Positions 28,512-60,672 of a stretch of DNA of 64,000 bases are shown in pieces. The position numbers were made by a program, and so were the translations under genes. Below the pieces are notes generated by a model. It saw only the letters and a program-made list of their open reading frames with translations. It had not been told where the DNA came from and did not search any database. The stretch comes from a virus. Positions within the stretch are counted from its first letter, which is position 1. The number at the start of each line of letters is the position of its first letter. Where the stretch lies: positions 29,723 to 93,722 of IMG/VR virus record IMGVR_UViG_3300013137_002966. The stretch is one strand, 5' to 3'.

Positions 28512-28603
28512 AAACTTTTATTTTATATGTATATATAAAAATATATAAGTCGAAAATGCTAAATGACTATAAATATCGCATTAAAAAAATAATAATTTAC
28601 ACA

Positions 28604-30088
28604 TTGTTAGTGGATGTAGAGTATAGGAGCAATAATTTGATCATTTCTTACATAGATAAATCTGGTCAAATTAAGTTAAAGTACAAAAATTGGCCAAGAC
28701 CCACGAAGTTTATTAAAACAAGTGATGATGATCGCGAAAAATCAGGACAATATGTAACTTGGGATGGAAGTGCTGTAAAAGAAATATACACTAAATATCC
28801 AAATAGATATTCAATTTATGATTTTATAGATAATTTGGCTGATGACGAAAAAGAAGAAATTTATAGTTATAACGAGCCTGATATATTCTTCGTTGATATT
28901 GAAAATGAGATTTTGGATAAAAAACCAGAACCTCATTTAGCTGAAAGTGCAATTCAAACAATATCTATTGTTAATAAAAATAAGATATTAGTAATTGGTA
29001 CAGAACCTTTATCACAGAATCAGATAGAATCTATAGAATCTGATATCAATTTACATTTCAAAAAATTTGAAACTAACTACGCATTTAAGTATATTCAGTA
29101 TAAAAACGAATATGATTTATTAAATAATTTCTTTAATAAATTGGTACCTAAGATGCCTGTTATTACAGGATGGAATTTTATAGAATACGACTGGGTATTT
29201 TTAGTGGCAAGAGCTAGAAAAATCGGCATTGATCCTGATGTTGCATCTTTTACTAGAAAAATGAATACTCCTTTTAATTTTAATTCAGCAGGTAAGCAAA
29301 ACTATGCTGAAATGCCAGCACATAGAGTTATAGTGGACTATATGGAATTATTTTCAAAATGGGATACCTCAGTTAAAGTAAAAGAAAGTTTATCTCTTGA
29401 TTTTGCTTCCGAAAAAATATTAGGTAAAGAAGTAAAAAAAATTAATTATGAAGGTGACTTAAAAAGACTTCATAGAGAAGATTATAAAAAATTCGTTTAT
29501 TATAACGCAGTTGACAGTTGTCTTGTTCAGAGAATTCATATAAAAATGAAATATATTGATATTCTGTATAGTATGGCAGTCTTAGGTAAAATTAAAATTA
29601 AAGATGCAATATCAACTCTTGCACTAACTGAAGGTATATTAAGAGAAAAATTAAGAGATCAAAAAAATATTGTTCTTGTTAGAGATGAACAAAGTGATGA
29701 ATATGGTGAAGGCGGTGGTTCATCAATTAAAGGTGGATGGGTTAAGGAACCAGTGAGAGGAATGGCAACCTGGACCTGTTGTTTTGATTTTGCTTCTCTT
29801 TATCCTACAACCATGCGTCAATTTAATATTTCAGCGGATTCATATAAAGGACAGAAAGTTAAAGGAAAAAACTATTCCATTTTTAATGGACATCAAATAC
29901 CGATAGAAGATGATGATATAGTGACTTTGAATGATTCTGTATTTCGGAAGGAGCAGGGAGTTGTGACACAAGTAATGGGTGAGGTTTATGCAGATAGAAA
30001 GAAATGGAAAAAAGTAATGATGCAAAAACATGAAGAACTTGAAAAATTGAAAGAAGAGTTAAAAAAATTAGAAGATACTCCTTTGTGA
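28604..30088 (+). CDS. polB: Family B DNA polymerase, N-terminal half (exonuclease plus motif A)
   Basis: VDIE, TGWNFIEYD, YNAVD, FDFASLYP; ends in the fingers helix with no KxxxNSxYG or DTDS; likely TTG start. Confidence 0.9.
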   Translation: MLVDVEYRSNNLIISYIDKSGQIKLKYKNWPRPTKFIKTSDDDREKSGQYVTWDGSAVKEIYTKYPNRYSIYDFIDNLADDEKEEIYSYNEPDIFFVDIENEILDKKPEPHLAESAIQTISIVNKNKILVIGTEPLSQNQIESIESDINLHFKKFETNYAFKYIQYKNEYDLLNNFFNKLVPKMPVITGWNFIEYDWVFLVARARKIGIDPDVASFTRKMNTPFNFNSAGKQNYAEMPAHRVIVDYMELFSKWDTSVKVKESLSLDFASEKILGKEVKKINYEGDLKRLHREDYKKFVYYNAVDSCLVQRIHIKMKYIDILYSMAVLGKIKIKDAISTLALTEGILREKLRDQKNIVLVRDEQSDEYGEGGGSSIKGGWVKEPVRGMATWTCCFDFASLYPTTMRQFNISADSYKGQKVKGKNYSIFNGHQIPIEDDDIVTLNDSVFRKEQGVVTQVMGEVYADRKKWKKVMMQKHEELEKLKEELKKLEDTPL

Positions 30089-41116: not shown

Positions 41117-42451
41117 TTAAAGTAATTCATTCGCTAAGTTTGCTAAATCTGATCTTTCACCTTTTTCTAATGTTACGTGTGAATATAGTGAATGACCTTT
41201 TATTTTATCTATCATATGTGATAAACCATTACTTTGTGCATCAAGATAAGGTGTATCAATTTGTTGAATATCACCAGTAAATACCATTTTTGTACCTTCA
41301 CCAGATCTTGTGATGATTGTTTTAATCTCATGTGGAGTTAAATTTTGTGACTCATCAATGATGAAAAAAACATTTGATATGCTTCTACCTCTTATGTACG
41401 AAAGTGGTGCAATGATAATTTTTTCATCCTTAATACATTCATTTATAAATTTAAATTCCTTGTCAGCTTCTCTAAATTGGCTTTGAATAAACTTGAGATT
41501 ATCAAATAAAGGTTCCATAAACGGTTGAAGTTTACTATCCAAAGTACCAGGTAAAAATCCTGTATCACGATTACTTAATGGAACGATTGGTCTAGCAAGA
41601 AAAATTTGTTTGAAATTTCTTTTTTGATGAAGGGCACTAGCAAGTGCTAAAAGTGTTTTTCCTGTTCCTGCAACGCCCTGAAGTGAAACTAATCTAACAT
41701 CATCATTTAATAAAGCATGCAGAGCAAATACTTGTTCGGAGTTTCTTGGTGTGATTTTATAACAAGTTTGTTTATCAATTTTTTCAACCTTTTGTGTTTT
41801 TGCATTGAAATATGCCAAAACCGAAGAAGAACTACCCTTGATGATTAAATAATGATTGTTTTCAGTATTTTTTAATGATATGTCTCCTGGAAGGCAGAAT
41901 CCTTCTTTATAAATATTTGTAATAAGTGCATCATCTACACCTTCTATTGTTGATTTTCCTGTGAATAAATCTGAAGTATCTTTTATTTTACCTGTTAAAT
42001 AATCCTCAGAATTAATATTTAACGATTTTGCTTTTAATCTTAGATTTATATCTTTTGTTACAAGTGTAATTTTTTTATTTGGTTCTTCATTTATTAAAGT
42101 GAGAGTGGCATTGAGTATATGATGATCTGGCTTATTATCTTGAAAAATTTTAATAGCATTAATCACAGGATTTGGATTTTCTGTCATAATAACTTTAAAT
42201 CTACCCTTACTTTCATTTAAGGTTACCCAATTATTAAGAGTGCTCTTAAGTGCGATTTTATCTATACTTCTGATAAATTCTCTTGCTTCAAAATTAATAG
42301 TGTCATTTCCCTTTTTAAAATTATCTAATTCTTCAAATACCGTAATAGGTATTGCTACATCATTATCCTCAAAATTGAAAATTGCATTGTGATCATAAAG
42401 AATCACTGAGGTGTCTATTACAAAAATTTTATTACTTTTGGATTTAGTCAT
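41117..42451 (-). CDS. phoH: PIN-PhoH family protein
   Basis: N-terminal PIN domain (DTSV, TKDINLR); GVAGTGKT, RGRS, DESQN, GDIQQID. Confidence 0.95.
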   Translation of the reverse strand: MTKSKSNKIFVIDTSVILYDHNAIFNFEDNDVAIPITVFEELDNFKKGNDTINFEAREFIRSIDKIALKSTLNNWVTLNESKGRFKVIMTENPNPVINAIKIFQDNKPDHHILNATLTLINEEPNKKITLVTKDINLRLKAKSLNINSEDYLTGKIKDTSDLFTGKSTIEGVDDALITNIYKEGFCLPGDISLKNTENNHYLIIKGSSSSVLAYFNAKTQKVEKIDKQTCYKITPRNSEQVFALHALLNDDVRLVSLQGVAGTGKTLLALASALHQKRNFKQIFLARPIVPLSNRDTGFLPGTLDSKLQPFMEPLFDNLKFIQSQFREADKEFKFINECIKDEKIIIAPLSYIRGRSISNVFFIIDESQNLTPHEIKTIITRSGEGTKMVFTGDIQQIDTPYLDAQSNGLSHMIDKIKGHSLYSHVTLEKGERSDLANLANELL

Positions 42452-49767: not shown

Positions 49768-50709
49768 ATGATTAAGAACTATAATTTATTTTTATTAAAA
49801 GAAAATGTGAAATTATCAAGTGATGATATTATTGATATTATTAAATCATTAAGCACTGATGATAAGAATTCTAAATTAGTCAACAAATTAGTAAATTATG
49901 TTGATGAACAAGGTAAAACTATATTAATGGATTTAGTTCAAAAAAATAAAATTGATTTAATAGATTATATTCTAAAATTTAATATTGATATTAATCATAA
50001 AAATAAAAAGAATGAAAATGTTCTTTTTTATTGTAAGAATATCAATATGTTTAATAAATTTTATAATATGGGAGCAGATAGTACATTAATCAATTCAGAT
50101 GAAAGAAATATATTATTAGTGTTATCAAATAAAAAAATTTTTAATGTAGATTTATATAAAAAATTAATTAATGATGGTGTTGATATAAATAAAAAAGATT
50201 TATGGAACAATAGTATTGTATTTTATAGTATTTATAATCAAAAAATATTAGAATTACTTATAAGTGAAAATGTAGAATTTGATAATATTAACACTCTATC
50301 AATTATTAATGAATTATTTAATAGATTCAGATATTGGGATAAAGATAGAAAAATGATAATTAAAAAAATTAAATATTTATTTGAAAATGGATTAAAAATA
50401 TCAAATAAAATGCTTCTTGAAGCTATTAAAGATCGACTTATTTGGTCAACCGCAAGTGATAAGTATGATATTGTCAAAGATTTTTTAATGCCACTATCAG
50501 ATTATATTGATGATGATATGATAAAACAATTAATCACAGACAATTCAAATAATGCTAATCTCTTAATGAAAATCATGAAAAATCTTCCACATTATTATCC
50601 ATATATTAAACAATTATATGGAAGTTCTCCAGATTCTTTTAATTATTACTTTGGTGAGTTTTTAAAAAAACATACTCATCTAGAAGCAGCAGATAAATAT
50701 AACTTATAA
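49768..50709 (+). CDS. Ankyrin-repeat protein
   Basis: G.T.LM, GADSTL, GVDIN..D repeats. Confidence 0.7.
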   Translation: MIKNYNLFLLKENVKLSSDDIIDIIKSLSTDDKNSKLVNKLVNYVDEQGKTILMDLVQKNKIDLIDYILKFNIDINHKNKKNENVLFYCKNINMFNKFYNMGADSTLINSDERNILLVLSNKKIFNVDLYKKLINDGVDINKKDLWNNSIVFYSIYNQKILELLISENVEFDNINTLSIINELFNRFRYWDKDRKMIIKKIKYLFENGLKISNKMLLEAIKDRLIWSTASDKYDIVKDFLMPLSDYIDDDMIKQLITDNSNNANLLMKIMKNLPHYYPYIKQLYGSSPDSFNYYFGEFLKKHTHLEAADKYNL

Positions 50710-53818: not shown

Positions 53819-53846
53819 AAAAAAAGCCTCGTTTGAGGCTTTTTTT
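53819..53846. terminator. Bidirectional terminator
   Basis: aaaaaagcctc-gttt-gaggctttttt. Confidence 0.9.
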
Positions 53847-54258
53847 ATTTTAAATGTATTCTGGTTCGACCATCATTCCAATAATTTATATTACCATAAT
53901 AAACTAATATTTCCTCATCTTTTTCAATTCTTTTATTTGATTTAAAAACAAAAATTTCATTTTGGTCATCTGTATACCAAAAAGCATTAGGCATTTCTGA
54001 GTGATTATAATAACAAGCAAATCCCATAGGTAAAACTTGATATTTCCAGTCAGCAGTTGGAAAATTAAATCTATAATCTATAAAAAGAGGACTTAAATCA
54101 CCTTTATTTATAGGTAAAATTAGAAAAGGTACTTCTTCTAATATTTCATTTTCAAAAATTACATCCTTAGCAAAAACACCCCAACCATGAATAGTTGATT
54201 TTCGTAATTGTATTTTGGAATTAAAAAAGAGACTATCTTTCATTTTTGATAAATCCAT
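53845..54258 (-). CDS. SET-domain protein
   Basis: IHGWGVFA, YNHS..PN, EEILVYYG. Confidence 0.9.
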   Translation of the reverse strand: MDLSKMKDSLFFNSKIQLRKSTIHGWGVFAKDVIFENEILEEVPFLILPINKGDLSPLFIDYRFNFPTADWKYQVLPMGFACYYNHSEMPNAFWYTDDQNEIFVFKSNKRIEKDEEILVYYGNINYWNDGRTRIHLK

Positions 54259-57463: not shown

Positions 57464-57574
57464 AATTAAAATTGTTTTTTTTTGTTAATATTAAAAAATC
57501 TATTATTGTATTCGCATAATAGATTTCAATCTTATATAAATAAATTTATAAGAAGTTTAAAAAAAGTGAATTTG

Positions 57575-57648
57575 TGCATTCAGAGAGATTCGAACTCTCA
57601 TCTATATCATTCGCAATGATATCCTCTATCCAATTAAGTTATGAATGC
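57575..57648 (-). tRNA. tRNA-Arg(GCG)
   Basis: Cloverleaf; anticodon arm TATCA-TTGCGAA-TGATA; TTCGAAT T-loop. Confidence 0.85.
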
Positions 57649-57675
57649 GTTATTTCAAGCTACAGATATATTTTG

Positions 57676-57747
57676 TGCACCCAGCAAGATTCGAACTCGC
57701 ACACGATGGGTCGAAACCACCGATCCTTCCATTTAAATGATGAGTGC
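57676..57747 (-). tRNA. tRNA-Arg(TCG)
   Basis: GGTGG-TTTCGAC-CCATC; TTCGAAT. Confidence 0.85.
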
Positions 57748-57753
57748 ATTTTT

Positions 57754-58236
57754 TTAGACAGAGCCAAATATGGAAGCATCAACTTTTCTTAACTTATCTC
57801 TCCTTAAAATTATATTCTTATATTTTTTAATATCCTTATTACCTTCATCTAAACACTGTTCCAATAAATCATTAGTTTCATTCATCACAATTTTTTTTGT
57901 CCAATTTGAGCTATTATCACCATAATGATTAGTATCAAATCCAATCATCCAATAACCATCAAAATTTTTATAATTTTCTAATGTTATATCACCATCAAAC
58001 TCTCTATCACCTATCCATTCTAGAAAATATTCAGCTTCAAATTTTTGTGCAAAAGTCAATCCACCATGTATTCTTACATCATTTATATTATCATAATCTT
58101 TTCCATAAAAAGGATGATTTGGAGGTAATAAAACATAACCAGTACCCCAACCGTAATCAAAACCAATATCAAACATACTAAGTTTTGACTTGCTTAAAAT
58201 ATTCTCAATTATTAATGTGTATATTCCATATTTCAT
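57754..58236 (-). CDS. Conserved phage hypothetical protein within the tRNA array
   Basis: GYV..P..HP.YG, IHGGLTF, GFDTNH; TATCTTTG element at 58241-58248 just upstream of the ATG. Confidence 0.75.
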   Translation of the reverse strand: MKYGIYTLIIENILSKSKLSMFDIGFDYGWGTGYVLLPPNHPFYGKDYDNINDVRIHGGLTFAQKFEAEYFLEWIGDREFDGDITLENYKNFDGYWMIGFDTNHYGDNSSNWTKKIVMNETNDLLEQCLDEGNKDIKKYKNIILRRDKLRKVDASIFGSV

Positions 58237-58317
58237 AATACAAAGATAATAAAAAAAATTAATATTGGTGAATTTTTTTATGTAACGCACAATTTGTTAA
58301 AAAAATTGTTAAAAATG

Positions 58318-58391
58318 CGTGAGTGGAGGGTCACGATCCCCCAACCTTTTGATTAACAGTCAAATGCTCTAACCAATTGAGCTACACTCAC
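58318..58391 (-). tRNA. tRNA-Asn(GTT)
   Basis: TTTGA-CTGTTAA-TCAAA; G73; T-loop ATCGTGA. Confidence 0.9.
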
Positions 58392-58405
58392 TTATGTAAA
58401 ATTTG

Positions 58406-58488
58406 TAGTGTCGATGGGACTCGAACCCATATTTGCAACATACCAAATTACAGTTCTCGAAAGTATCAGTTTCGGCTGGTACGACACC
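58406..58488 (-). tRNA. Non-canonical tRNA-like RNA, anticodon GAT (Ile), no D-arm at the normal position
   Basis: Acceptor GGTGTCG/CGACACT; CGAAA-CTGATAC-TTTCG follows directly; canonical T-arm. Confidence 0.75.
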
Positions 58489-58494
58489 ATATTG

Positions 58495-58575
58495 TACTGG
58501 AGGTTGGATTCGAACCAACGTTTTCAACTTCCCACTACGTGTATAGAAGGTATAAGCTTCCAACGGTACCCCAGC
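58495..58575 (-). tRNA. Non-canonical tRNA-like RNA, anticodon TAT (Ile), same architecture
   Basis: GCTGGGG/CTCCAGT; GGAAG-CTTATAC-CTTCT; T-arm GTTGG-TTCGAAT-CCAAC. Confidence 0.75.
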
Positions 58576-58584
58576 ATAATTTTG

Positions 58585-58658
58585 TGGGTATGACAGAACT
58601 TGAATCTGTGACCTTTTGATTATCAGTCAAATGCTCTAACCAACTGAGCTACACACCC
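58585..58658 (-). tRNA. tRNA-Ile(GAT)
   Basis: TTTGA-CTGATAA-TCAAA; A73. Confidence 0.92.
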
Positions 58659-58662
58659 ATAT

Positions 58663-58764
58663 AGATTAAATGTGAAAGATTCGAACTTATCACCACCTCG
58701 TACCTGCCGAGATATTACGGATTGATTACCGTAAGTACTAACCACTTATACGAACATTTAATCT
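58663..58764 (-). ncRNA. tRNA-like RNA with 11-bp acceptor-type stem, 8-nt anticodon loop and variable arm
   Basis: AGATTAAATGT/ACATTTAATCT; D-loop AAGTGGTTA; TTACGG-TAATCAAT-CCGTAA; CTCG/CGAG; TTCGAAT. Confidence 0.7.
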
Positions 58765-58766
58765 TG

Positions 58767-58851
58767 TACCGTGAGTGGGAGTCGAACCCACGATGTCCTT
58801 ACGGACGGAGGCTTATGAGGCCCCTGCGATAGCCACTCCGCTCACCACGGT
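58767..58851 (-). tRNA. tRNA(CAT) (Met or Ile2) with long variable arm
   Basis: GGGGC-CTCATAA-GCCTC; V-arm GTCC-GTAA-GGAC. Confidence 0.85.
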
Positions 58852-58856
58852 ATTTG

Positions 58857-58941
58857 AGACGCTGATCGGACTCGAACCGACATACCCTTTCGGGATTGAC
58901 AGTTTTGCAGACTGCTAGCTAAACCATTCACCCACAGCGTC
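58857..58941 (-). tRNA. tRNA-Cys(GCA) with long variable arm
   Basis: GCAGT-CTGCAAA-ACTGT; V-arm CCC-GAAA-GGG; U73. Confidence 0.88.
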
Positions 58942-58956
58942 ATATAAAAAAATTTG

Positions 58957-59038
58957 TGGGAATAGATGGACTCGAACCACCGAACTCATACGAGAGCTGA
59001 TTTACAGTCAGCCGCAATTGCCACTATGCGATATTCCC
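58957..59038 (-). tRNA. tRNA-Tyr(GTA)
   Basis: GCTGA-CTGTAAA-TCAGC; V-arm; A73. Confidence 0.93.
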
Positions 59039-59110
59039 GTGGTATAAAGGTATCAGTAGCTTTCCTTTATCTTTCACTTTTTATCACCATTGCTACTATG
59101 TTGTGATAAA
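59039..59110 (-). ncRNA. Two-hairpin element with complementary loops
   Basis: TTTATCAC/GTGATAAA and ATAAAGG/CCTTTAT stems; loops contain AGTAGC and GCTACT. Confidence 0.55.
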
Positions 59111-59117
59111 CTCAGAG

Positions 59118-59192
59118 CACCCCTGAACGGTTACAATCCGTTTATTTTACTAAAGTGACAGTCTAGTTCTCCATCAAGGAGCCTACAAGGGT
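59118..59192 (-). tRNA. Divergent tRNA-Asp(GTC)
   Basis: ACCCTTG/CAGGGGT, G73, CTAGA-CTGTCAC-TTTAG; atypical D- and T-loops. Confidence 0.7.
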
Positions 59193-59199
59193 AATTTTG

Positions 59200-59267
59200 T
59201 GCCACCGGAAGTATTCGAAACTTCGAGCTGGGGTTTTACAGACCCGTCTTCTCCCTGGATCGTTGGC
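59200..59267 (-). tRNA. Short (68 nt) tRNA-Tyr(GTA)-like RNA with reduced D-arm and no V-arm
   Basis: GGGT-CTGTAAA-ACCC; GAAGT-TTCGAAT-ACTTC. Confidence 0.7.
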
Positions 59268-59272
59268 ATTTG

Positions 59273-59346
59273 CGGGGTTGACGGAACTCGAATCCGCGAC
59301 CACTTGAGTGACAGTCAAGTATTCTAACCATCTGAACTACAACCCC
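59273..59346 (-). tRNA. tRNA-Asp(GTC)
   Basis: CTTGA-CTGTCAC-TCAAG; G73. Confidence 0.93.
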
Positions 59347-59688
59347 TTAAAAACCAAATTCATTATAAATTCTAAGCCAATTTTTAATTGAATTACCAGT
59401 TACTCCATATTTTCTACCAGTTCCTTCTAAACCTAAAAGGTTTATTTCTTCAACTAATTTTTCATAAGGTGGTCTTTCAACTTTTCTTTGATTTATATAT
59501 GATTTTATTTCTTCTTTTGTAAATCCTTTATCATTTCTCTCTTTTTTAATATATTTTTTTGTTTCATATACAATTCCAACTTTTATTTTTTCAACTTTAT
59601 CGTTATTAGTAAGTTTAAATTTTAATATCTCAATTACATTTTCAATGTTATTTTTTACTTCATTTTCTGATACTCTAATCAATAGCAT
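59347..59688 (-). CDS. Truncated endonuclease remnant with HTH (DUF559-like tail)
   Basis: LIRVSENEVKNNIENV resembles a Vsr/DUF559 C-terminus; GRKYGVTGNSIKNW HTH. Confidence 0.5.
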   Translation of the reverse strand: MLLIRVSENEVKNNIENVIEILKFKLTNNDKVEKIKVGIVYETKKYIKKERNDKGFTKEEIKSYINQRKVERPPYEKLVEEINLLGLEGTGRKYGVTGNSIKNWLRIYNEFGF

Positions 59689-59712
59689 CTCATTGTAATC
59701 TCACACCTCCTG

Positions 59713-59783
59713 TACTCCCAGCGGATCCTGAGACCGCATCTTATCCTTGAAGGGGATATATCCTGCCTTTAGAAGATGGGAGC
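59713..59783 (-). tRNA. Divergent tRNA-Glu(TTC)
   Basis: GCTCCCA/TGGGAGT; TATCC-CCTTCAA-GGATA (C33); atypical T-loop. Confidence 0.75.
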
Positions 59784-59892
59784 ATGTTAAGGAAAACAGA
59801 ATACATTTTTTATTTGAATAAACGGTTCAATTTTTTTAGAATTGCTGTACGTATTCTTTATTTCCTTAATATTTTTCAAAAATTCACCAATA

Positions 59893-59903
59893 TGTCAAAG
59901 AAC
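59893..59903 (-). promoter_or_regulatory. rrn-type boxA antitermination element
   Basis: GTTCTTTGACA between the attenuator and the first tRNA. Confidence 0.65.
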
Positions 59904-59930
59904 CCTCACTTTATCAACTTCACTAAAAAC

Positions 59931-59963
59931 AAAAAACCCAGTCTTTTTTTGGACTGGGTTTTT
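59931..59963 (-). terminator. Attenuator 1 terminator
   Basis: AAACCCAGTC-CAAAAAAA-GACTGGGTTTTTT. Confidence 0.9.
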
Positions 59964-59983
59964 ATAATTTTTTTATAATTAGA

Positions 59984-60076
59984 TTATGATACTTCCAGTC
60001 CATATAGAGCATAATCCTCACATTCATTAATATTATTAATGTTGCGATAATCACATATGTTCATTCGGTTTTTCAT
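59984..60076 (-). CDS. Leader peptide 1 (MKNRMNICDYRNINNINECEDYALYGLEVS)
   Basis: 30-aa ORF; contains TGGACTGG, complementary to the terminator 5' arm. Confidence 0.85.
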   Translation of the reverse strand: MKNRMNICDYRNINNINECEDYALYGLEVS

Positions 60077-60139
60077 AACTCTTTTCTTTCTATTAATTTG
60101 TTTTATTTCTTACTTTATTTTTACTTCTCTTATAGAATA

Positions 60140-60170
60140 CAAATATACAAAAGTTTTTTTAATTTACAAA
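60140..60170 (-). promoter_or_regulatory. Bacteroidota sigma70-type promoter
   Basis: TTTG (60170-60167), 19 nt spacer, TATATTTG (60147-60140). Confidence 0.75.
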
Positions 60171-60199
60171 TATATATTAAATATTTTTTTCGTTTTTTT

Positions 60200-60490
60200 C
60201 TACTTTTTTTTATTTAGTTGATATTTAGATAATTTTATTATTCTTATAAATTTTTTATTGACTTGGTTTTTAGGTACTGTGTATAAAAATATAATTCTTT
60301 GTAACCATTTTATGTTTCTAAGAGTAATCAGATTATCTAATTTAATGAATAAGTGATATTTTCTGATTTGTTTTTTAGTAAATTTTTTTCTTTGTGTATA
60401 AAATTCACTAAATATTCTTTTATGAAAATAGTTAAAGTGTATTTTTTTCCACCACCAAGTTCCTCTATAAGTAATTAAAATTTTAAAAAT
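60200..60490 (-). CDS. Possible 96-aa basic protein with ATT start
   Basis: 97-codon open frame with no ATG/GTG/TTG; AAGGAG directly before ATT. Confidence 0.4.
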   Translation of the reverse strand: MFKILITYRGTWWWKKIHFNYFHKRIFSEFYTQRKKFTKKQIRKYHLFIKLDNLITLRNIKWLQRIIFLYTVPKNQVNKKFIRIIKLSKYQLNKKK

Positions 60491-60509
60491 ATTCTCCTTT
60501 CTTATTTAG

Positions 60510-60583
60510 TTGCGAATGGTTGGATTCGAACCAACGACCTCGAGCTTATGAAACTCGCTAGCTGACCACTGCTACACACCGCA
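60510..60583 (-). tRNA. tRNA-Met(CAT), initiator-like body, divergent
   Basis: CGAGT-TTCATAA-GCTCG; extra nucleotide in the acceptor stem. Confidence 0.8.
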
Positions 60584-60599
60584 ATATTCTTTTATTTTG

Positions 60600-60672
60600 T
60601 TGCGGGAGAAGGACTTGAACCTCCGACCTTCAGGTTATGGGCCTGACGAGCTACCAACTGCTCTATCCCGCG
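60600..60672 (-). tRNA. tRNA-fMet(CAT)
   Basis: C1:A72 mismatch; TCAGG-CCCATAA-CCTGA. Confidence 0.9.

Follow-up and report, generated by a model that had tools for sequence, protein, structure and literature searches.

Two predicted isoleucine tRNAs in a phage tRNA array carry a D-loop-like segment behind the anticodon arm

Within the tRNA array of a genome fragment from an AT-rich lake-water phage we identified two neighbouring genes, both on the minus strand, that very probably encode functional isoleucine elongator tRNAs with a rewired core. The window, by which we mean the whole stretch of DNA that was analysed, is the 64-kb end portion of an IMG/VR virus record of 93.7 kb and has a GC content of 26%. 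Copy 1 (58495-58575, 81 nt) has the anticodon TAT at 58554-58552, and copy 2 (58406-58488, 83 nt) has the anticodon GAT at 58467-58465; each retains a 7-bp acceptor stem, a 5-bp anticodon stem with a 7-nt loop, and a canonical T arm, and each is without a D hairpin. The first-pass annotation had described a tandem pair of tRNA-Ile-like RNAs in which the D-loop was apparently moved 3' of the anticodon arm, and our reading of the sequence agreed with it on both the layout and the position of the two RNAs.

Read 5' to 3', copy 1 begins with the acceptor strand GCTGGGG (paired with CTCCAGT) and continues with TAC, CGT, a single T, the anticodon arm GGAAG-CTTATAC-CTTCT, ATAC and ACG; there follow an 18-nt D-loop-like stretch, the T arm GTTGG-TTCGAAT-CCAAC, the acceptor strand CTCCAGT, and A73. 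Copy 2 is composed likewise of the acceptor strand GGTGTCG (paired with CGACACT), TAC, CAG, C, the anticodon arm CGAAA-CTGATAC-TTTCG, AGAA, CTG, a 20-nt stretch, the T arm ATGGG-TTCGAGT-CCCAT, CGACACT, and A73. The stretch of 18-20 nt contains TGG and GTTG.AAA in both copies, and both have a G1-U72 pair. The D-arm hairpin expected between positions 9 and 26 is absent, as only 7 nt separate the acceptor and anticodon stems.

The unusual region resolves into two short helices, H and M, with a bulge between them. In helix H of copy 1, CGT (58563-58565), in the role of D-stem strand 22-25, pairs with ACG (58538-58540), in the role of D-stem strand 10-12; in copy 2, CAG (58476-58478) pairs with CTG (58453-58451). 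That the stems covary between the two copies had been claimed previously, and recomputing the comparison gave the same result. Across the family the three pairs of helix H are, in turn, invariantly CG; GC, AU or CG; and GC, AU, UA or CG. The bulge that follows is TAGTGGGAA in copy 1 (58529-58537), a match to the canonical D-loop consensus that reads U, A14, G15, U, G18, G19, G20, A21, A, and TAATTTGGTAT in copy 2 (58440-58450), with A14, A15, G18 and G19. Generally, the stretch after helix H begins U-A-R-U-(U)-G-G-N-A, which is the order of an ordinary D-loop from A14 to A21. The TGG motif that had been singled out as D-loop-like belongs to a U-A14-R15-..-G18-G19-..-A21 run, after which a GAAAAY linker leads to the T stem.

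Helix M, which was absent from the first-pass annotation, consists of 2-3 bp between the bases after U8 and the bases before GAAAA. In copy 1, A9 and C10 (58566-58567) pair with GT (58528-58527), and the linker TGAAAAC (58520-58526), with its conserved GAAAAY run, ends in C48 and adjoins the T stem. In copy 2 the 3' strand of helix M and the linker TGCAAAT together occupy 58431-58439, with GT (58439-58438) paired to A9 and C10 (58480-58479). G15 of copy 1 covaries with C48 at 58520, and A15 of copy 2, together with T48 at 58431, represents the alternative state of the same R15:Y48 pair.

We propose that in the folded RNA the strand A9-N13, following U8, would connect the acceptor stem and the anticodon stem without interruption. 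Its partner would come from the 3' side of the anticodon arm, where three bases pair with N11-N13 as helix H; the bulge with D-loop sequence (A14, R15, G18G19, A21) would then emerge, the two bases past it would pair with A9-N10 as helix M, and the GAAAAY linker would lead into the T stem. The cloverleaf segment 10-21 would in effect have moved behind the anticodon arm, with the strand after U8 assuming the role of 22-25. The stack under the elbow would be of about the usual length, at 5 bp plus the 26/44 layer as compared with the normal 4 bp, and the bulge should still be able to engage in the contacts on which the L shape depends, namely U8-A14, R15-Y48 and G18G19/T-loop. U8, A14 and the GG are conserved in the family, and we infer that the contacts of U8, A14, R15:Y48 and G18G19 are actually made.

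The evidence for the fold is comparative. For the first viral search we used a motif composed of the unusual stretch and the T loop, which yielded 21 loci, 18 of them with the same architecture, and from these we built an alignment of 16 distinct sequences, A2. In A2, 99.4% of the cells that should pair do so, 15 of 20 pairs show compensatory changes, 0 of 500 shuffles scored as high, and every slid register fell well short. RNAalifold, applied to 16 relatives, recovered the same four helices de novo. A larger alignment, A4, contains 44 distinct Ile-type sequences; here 98.5% of cells are paired and 19 of 23 pairs are compensatory, as compared with 34-42% of cells paired when the registers are slid. 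Compensatory changes occur in all seven pairs of the acceptor stem, in which 99% of cells pair, and the anticodon stem pairs in 100% of cells. The earlier claim that the fold is conserved rather than decayed is thus upheld, there being homologues with compensatory changes in every helix.

Beyond the helices, the R15:Y48 positions are complementary (G/C or A/T) in 81 of 82 members, a level that 0 of 10000 shuffles reached. In A4 the pair is GC in 34 sequences and AU in 10, and both states are present inside the GAT class and likewise inside the TCT class. Helix M is 3 bp long and covaries clearly in the Arg members, which are introduced below (AGC/GCT, AAC/GTT, AGT/ACT and AAT/ATT); overall, 83 of 102 of its pairs form, against 59.6 +/- 3.0 in shuffles. 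It varies little in the Ile type, where pair 10:52 in A4 is CG in 33 of the 41 scored cells, with the remainder UG (4), AU (1), UA (1) and two others that are unpaired. We also considered a 3-bp pairing of TAC with the GTA of TGGTA and rejected it, since three members have GGA and there is no covariation.

The proposed fold is not the thermodynamic optimum of either single sequence. For copy 1 its energy is -16.0 kcal/mol as compared with -23.2 kcal/mol for the minimum free energy (MFE) structure, for copy 2 the values are -15.3 and -19.9 kcal/mol, and the addition of helix M costs energy. The MFE folds lack the anticodon hairpin, and for this reason we judged the structure from covariation instead.

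To search more widely we built a covariance model of the rewired layout, R1, that includes helix H, the D-loop-like bulge, helix M and the GAAAAY linker. The two window genes score 97.5 bits (copy 1) and 89 bits (copy 2) with this model, any other sequence in the first 23 sources scores at most about 33 bits, and the cloverleaf tRNAs that we checked score no more than 31 bits. Applied to viral loci fetched with a looser pattern, R1 identified at least 71 members in at least 46 loci among the 79 loci listed. The identical pattern applied to a prokaryotic set with one genome per species gave a single R1 match, on a 9-kb MAG contig, among the 80 bacterial and archaeal loci listed. A covariance-model search of phage and bacterial DNA, which had been suggested at the outset, returned dozens of viral homologues with the conserved fold, and the rewired-tRNA family is, on the strength of these sequence comparisons, real and strongly phage-associated. 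The relatives were fetched by patterns that fix the GAAAAY/T-loop or the anticodon-loop/TAGYGG motifs and leave the helix positions free, so that conservation of GAAAAY, the T loop, the anticodon loop and TAGYGG is partly by construction. A third viral scan, with the anticodon loop and TAGYGG, was set aside because the pattern was too AT-rich and its matches were mostly chance occurrences in coding DNA.

The anticodons found on the rewired layout are TAT and GAT for Ile; CAT; TCT, TCG, ACG, CCT and GCG for Arg; and a single CCA. The same layout therefore also serves predicted arginine tRNAs, which the first-pass annotation had not mentioned. As one example, we point to the cultured Vibrio phage D260, in which an Arg(ACG) member (OZ195864, 66332-66411) lies unannotated between annotated tRNAs. 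Vibrio, Caulobacter and Brevundimonas phages have relatives of this gene, in 329 GenBank records in total, and in a spread sample of 40 of these records the gene was annotated in only one; cultured phages with the Arg type should also include phiCbK-like Caulobacter phages such as CcrRogue. An Ile(TAT) member is present in the huge phage LR756502. BLAST of copy 1 against the GenBank phage set gave no match; BLAST of a relative against the same set gave one full-length match, to LR756502, and many further matches limited to the 3' part around the T arm.

Two variants were noted among the sequences retrieved. A subfamily of rewired Ile(TAT) genes, with members at L295:8578-8667, L302:4102-4190, L325:1901-1989 and L031:11715-11803, has a small extra hairpin (TTGA-loop-TCAA) within the GAAAA linker, resembling a short variable arm. 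A 53-nt element without any anticodon arm, found at L008:2478-2530 (minus strand) and also in L013 and L014, has as its only parts a 7-bp acceptor stem, a T arm and a stretch that resembles a D-loop and shares the TGG...GTTGAAAAT motif; it scores 32.7 bits with R1.

Apart from the core, the two genes have the features of tRNA-Ile. The anticodon loops are CTTATAC and CTGATAC, with U33 and A37 kept across the family, and the T loops TTCGAAT (copy 1) and TTCGAGT (copy 2) fit TTCRANY and close on a 5-bp T stem. A73 is present in both copies and in all Ile-type members, and with the anticodons GAT and TAT and A37 it completes a set of tRNA-Ile identity features. In E. coli the determinants in the body of tRNA-Ile are C4:G69, U12:A23 and C29:G41. 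Position 4:69 is G:C in both copies, neither of which has a conventional 12:23 pair, and the E. coli determinant set may not be that of the host. Arg-type members keep an A directly after the GG, the position at which ArgRS reads A20.

The gene context is also that of tRNAs. Family members sit in tRNA arrays with spacers of 6-14 nt. In arrays whose ordinary tRNAs encode CCA, 30 of 34 members likewise have CCA encoded after the discriminator, as compared with 0 of 59 in other arrays. The suggestion that the pair are functional tRNAs accordingly looks probable from the homologues with compensatory changes, the kept R15:Y48 pair and an encoded CCA that follows the local convention. Rewired members mostly fill anticodon slots for which the locus has no ordinary tRNA: a cloverleaf tRNA with the same anticodon is present in the locus for 2 of 20 TAT, 0 of 9 TCG, 1 of 10 ACG, 5 of 29 TCT and 6 of 15 GAT members. 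Within the window, ATA is used 39 times per 1000 codons and makes up 42% of Ile codons. We predict that both RNAs are made from the phage tRNA array and are processed and charged like ordinary tRNAs, with the TAT copy reading AUA and the GAT copy reading AUU and AUC, and the likely benefit would be a supply of AUA readers to a genome of 26% GC. The L shape, processing, charging by IleRS and decoding are what we infer for these RNAs. Because the anticodon of copy 2 is that of the adjoining canonical tRNA-Ile(GAT), supply alone is an insufficient explanation of copy 2.

Standard tools overlook the genes, as had been anticipated. ARAGORN found neither copy, whether introns were allowed or not, and when run with introns, mitochondrial models or relaxed thresholds it proposed nothing better than poor models whose stems contain mismatches, which we rejected. 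The Rfam tRNA model RF00005, with a gathering threshold of 29 bits, scored copy 1 at 29.8 bits with permissive filters only and copy 2 at 16.6 bits; in its alignment of copy 1, 4 nt stand against the model's 15 for the D arm, and a 22-nt insertion precedes the T arm. With the tmRNA model the sole match was to the T arm of copy 2 (7.9 bits). Counts of phage tRNAs would be too low, particularly where AT-rich phages have the greatest need, in AUA and AGA readers.

That the Rfam model just reaches its threshold for copy 1, and that the MFE folds differ from the one proposed, might be taken to mean that we have misread an ordinary cloverleaf whose D arm lies in another register, or appears after removal of a short intron or rearrangement of the transcript. 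We regard this as highly improbable: the 7 nt between the acceptor and anticodon stems are too few for a D hairpin, ARAGORN with introns reports nothing at normal thresholds and mismatched stems when relaxed, and covariation favours the H and M pairings and not the slid registers. It is hardly credible that the genes are decaying tRNA pseudogenes or chance tRNA-like sequence, a view that could appeal to their rejection by standard finders and to the score of copy 2 below the Rfam threshold. Dozens of diverged relatives keep every helix by compensatory changes with the anticodon loop intact, and the divergence of these relatives excludes recent copying of one sequence. The sequence is, in addition, identical across independent metagenome assemblies: contigs from four other lake-water metagenomes match the stretch exactly, one of them covering 58250-58665, although their identity makes them uninformative on population variation.

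More attention is due to the idea that these are tRNA-shaped RNAs that are made but do not decode, and that act, for example, as decoys or sponges for host enzymes that cut or modify tRNA-Ile, or as regulators of the array. Copy 2 shares its anticodon with the canonical tRNA-Ile located 8 nt upstream of copy 1, the 6 of 15 GAT members noted above have such a cloverleaf partner, and the changed core could conceivably hold a nuclease without feeding the ribosome. Nevertheless, a decoy could do without a discriminator, without a CCA that tracks the local tRNA convention, and without keeping R15:Y48 and the G18G19/T-loop set; in most cases no other gene in the locus has the member's anticodon, and the identity features differ by class, with A73 in Ile members and the A after GG in Arg members. 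We consider decoys improbable, and we favour the reading of both genes as functional isoleucine tRNAs.

Comparison with known RNAs helps to define what is different about the layout. Bacterial and phage tRNA-Ile of the canonical kind shares with the rewired RNAs the 7-bp acceptor stem, A73, the 5-bp anticodon stem, the 7-nt loop with U33 and A37, the anticodons GAU and UAU, the canonical T arm, the nucleotides U8, A14, R15, G18G19 and Y48, and, in all likelihood, the job of reading AUU/AUC and AUA. The canonical form has a D hairpin, whereas the rewired RNAs have a three-way rather than a four-way junction, with the partner strand and the D-loop placed 3' of the anticodon arm. Canonical bacterial tRNA-Ile also includes the lysidine-CAU tRNA-Ile2. 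In the permuted tRNA genes of Cyanidioschyzon merolae, the order of segments along the gene is likewise non-standard, but there the permutation is circular and involves the entire gene, and a normal cloverleaf results from processing; in both of our copies the 5' acceptor strand comes first and the 3' strand last, and the new connectivity would be in the mature RNA itself. The tRNA-like domain of tmRNA has an acceptor stem, a T arm and a single-stranded D-loop analogue that touches the T-loop, without a D hairpin and without an anticodon. The D-loop analogue is 5' in tmRNA, whereas in the rewired tRNAs it lies 3' of a true anticodon arm.

Closest in structure is the D-armless mitochondrial tRNA-Ser(GCU/AGY) (PMC9427863). 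It too has no D hairpin, and its 5' connector pairs with the would-be variable region, lengthening the anticodon stem; its tertiary core is lost and its T-loop remodelled (PMC9427863). The rewired tRNAs, which are found in phages and measure 81-83 nt, differ in that G18G19 is kept within a D-loop-like bulge, the T-loop is canonical, and R15 and Y48 covary as a pair. A rare tRNA-Ile with the UAU anticodon is known from Mycoplasma mobile (PMC3575796). The first-pass annotation had supposed that similar rearranged tRNAs may already be reported; a full-text literature search found no published description of the rewired layout, and a 2020 review of non-canonical tRNAs mentions neither phages nor this layout (PMC7609411). 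Judged by its predicted structure, the rewired layout is a new structural variant of tRNA.

All tRNA matches of the whole record fall within an array at 57574-60672 (minus strand), and, as had been noticed, the rewired pair lies beside a canonical cloverleaf tRNA-Ile(GAT) (58584-58658, minus strand; called by ARAGORN, Rfam 76.1 bits), 8 nt upstream of copy 1. CheckV estimates the record to be 18% complete, which indicates a genome of several hundred kb, and a type IX secretion sorting domain on the protein adjoining the array suggests a Bacteroidota host. The sequencing runs listed for the locus are lake-water metagenomes, and no RNA run was among them. Among 27 window proteins searched against Pfam there was neither an aminoacyl-tRNA synthetase nor an enzyme for tRNA repair or CCA addition, a result that says little given that the record is only about 18% of the genome. 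Both leaders had been said to contain ATA. The one upstream leader ORF that we read, of 30 codons (60076-59984, minus strand), contains one ATA codon and is abundant in Asn, Arg, Met, Ile, Cys, Asp, Tyr and Glu codons; a strong terminator-like hairpin (59963-59932, minus strand) stands after it and upstream of the tRNA array.

Several other genes of the array, all on the minus strand, are unusual in their own right. One of them, a tRNA-like gene of 68 nt at 59200-59267, has a Tyr anticodon loop (CTGTAAA) and a good T arm, forms 6 of 7 acceptor pairs, and is reported neither by ARAGORN nor by Rfam. In it ATCCAGGGAGAAGA replaces the D arm, and the GAG there can pair with a CTC immediately 5' of the T stem; the gene is kept, with compensatory T-stem changes, in a viral relative, L276, and the CCAGGGA motif is common to about ten viral contigs of 125-136 kb. 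The tRNA-like gene at 58664-58761 measures 98 nt; its acceptor stem is 8 bp long, its T stem short and its variable arm long, and TCA lies within an anticodon loop of 8 nt, TAATCAAT. Its product could read UGA in the manner of a Sec tRNA or an allo-tRNA, or could decode four-base codons; among the stop codons of 50 long window ORFs, TGA occurs 10 times and TAG 0 times. Long variable arms in bacteria are normally confined to Leu, Ser, Tyr and Sec tRNAs, and two 86-nt tRNAs with anticodons CAT (58766-58851) and GCA (58856-58941) also have them. A 72-nt tRNA with a CAT anticodon and a mismatched acceptor stem (60511-60582; Rfam 50.1 bits) was missed by ARAGORN and adjoins an initiator-like tRNA-Met at 60599-60672.

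Elsewhere in the window we observed several NAD-dependent sugar epimerases, glycosyltransferases and one carbamoyltransferase (3216-23261), a 510-aa piece of a family B DNA polymerase with the exonuclease domain and only the start of the polymerase domain (28556-30088), a PIN-PhoH protein (41117-42451), an ankyrin-repeat protein (49768-50709) and a SET-domain protein (53845-54258).

As to why a phage would carry so odd a core, escape from tRNA-targeting enzymes is plausible, as one guess. A broader reading, which we put forward tentatively and with some doubt, is that a distinct phage-borne three-way-junction tRNA architecture, in which the D-stem strand and the D-loop have been relocated to follow the anticodon arm, has spread through Ile and Arg isoacceptors by anticodon shifts (for example, UCU to UAU) and has been kept because its altered core hides it from enzymes that recognise the normal D arm or variable loop. 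If evasion is the true reading, those enzymes could be host defence nucleases, or they could be the phage's own tRNA-degrading machinery, in which case the phage would be telling its own tRNAs from those of the host.

To our knowledge, the cloverleaf with its D hairpin is regarded as near-universal outside mitochondria. The genes described here appear to keep the same tertiary contacts with a different connectivity, and selection acts on the design in many phages, among them cultured phages of Vibrio and Caulobacter. An L shape would then be buildable from another strand order, which is relevant both to tRNA evolution and to the design of orthogonal tRNAs, and, if the rewired core serves escape from tRNA-targeting immunity, it would represent a new counter-defence principle.
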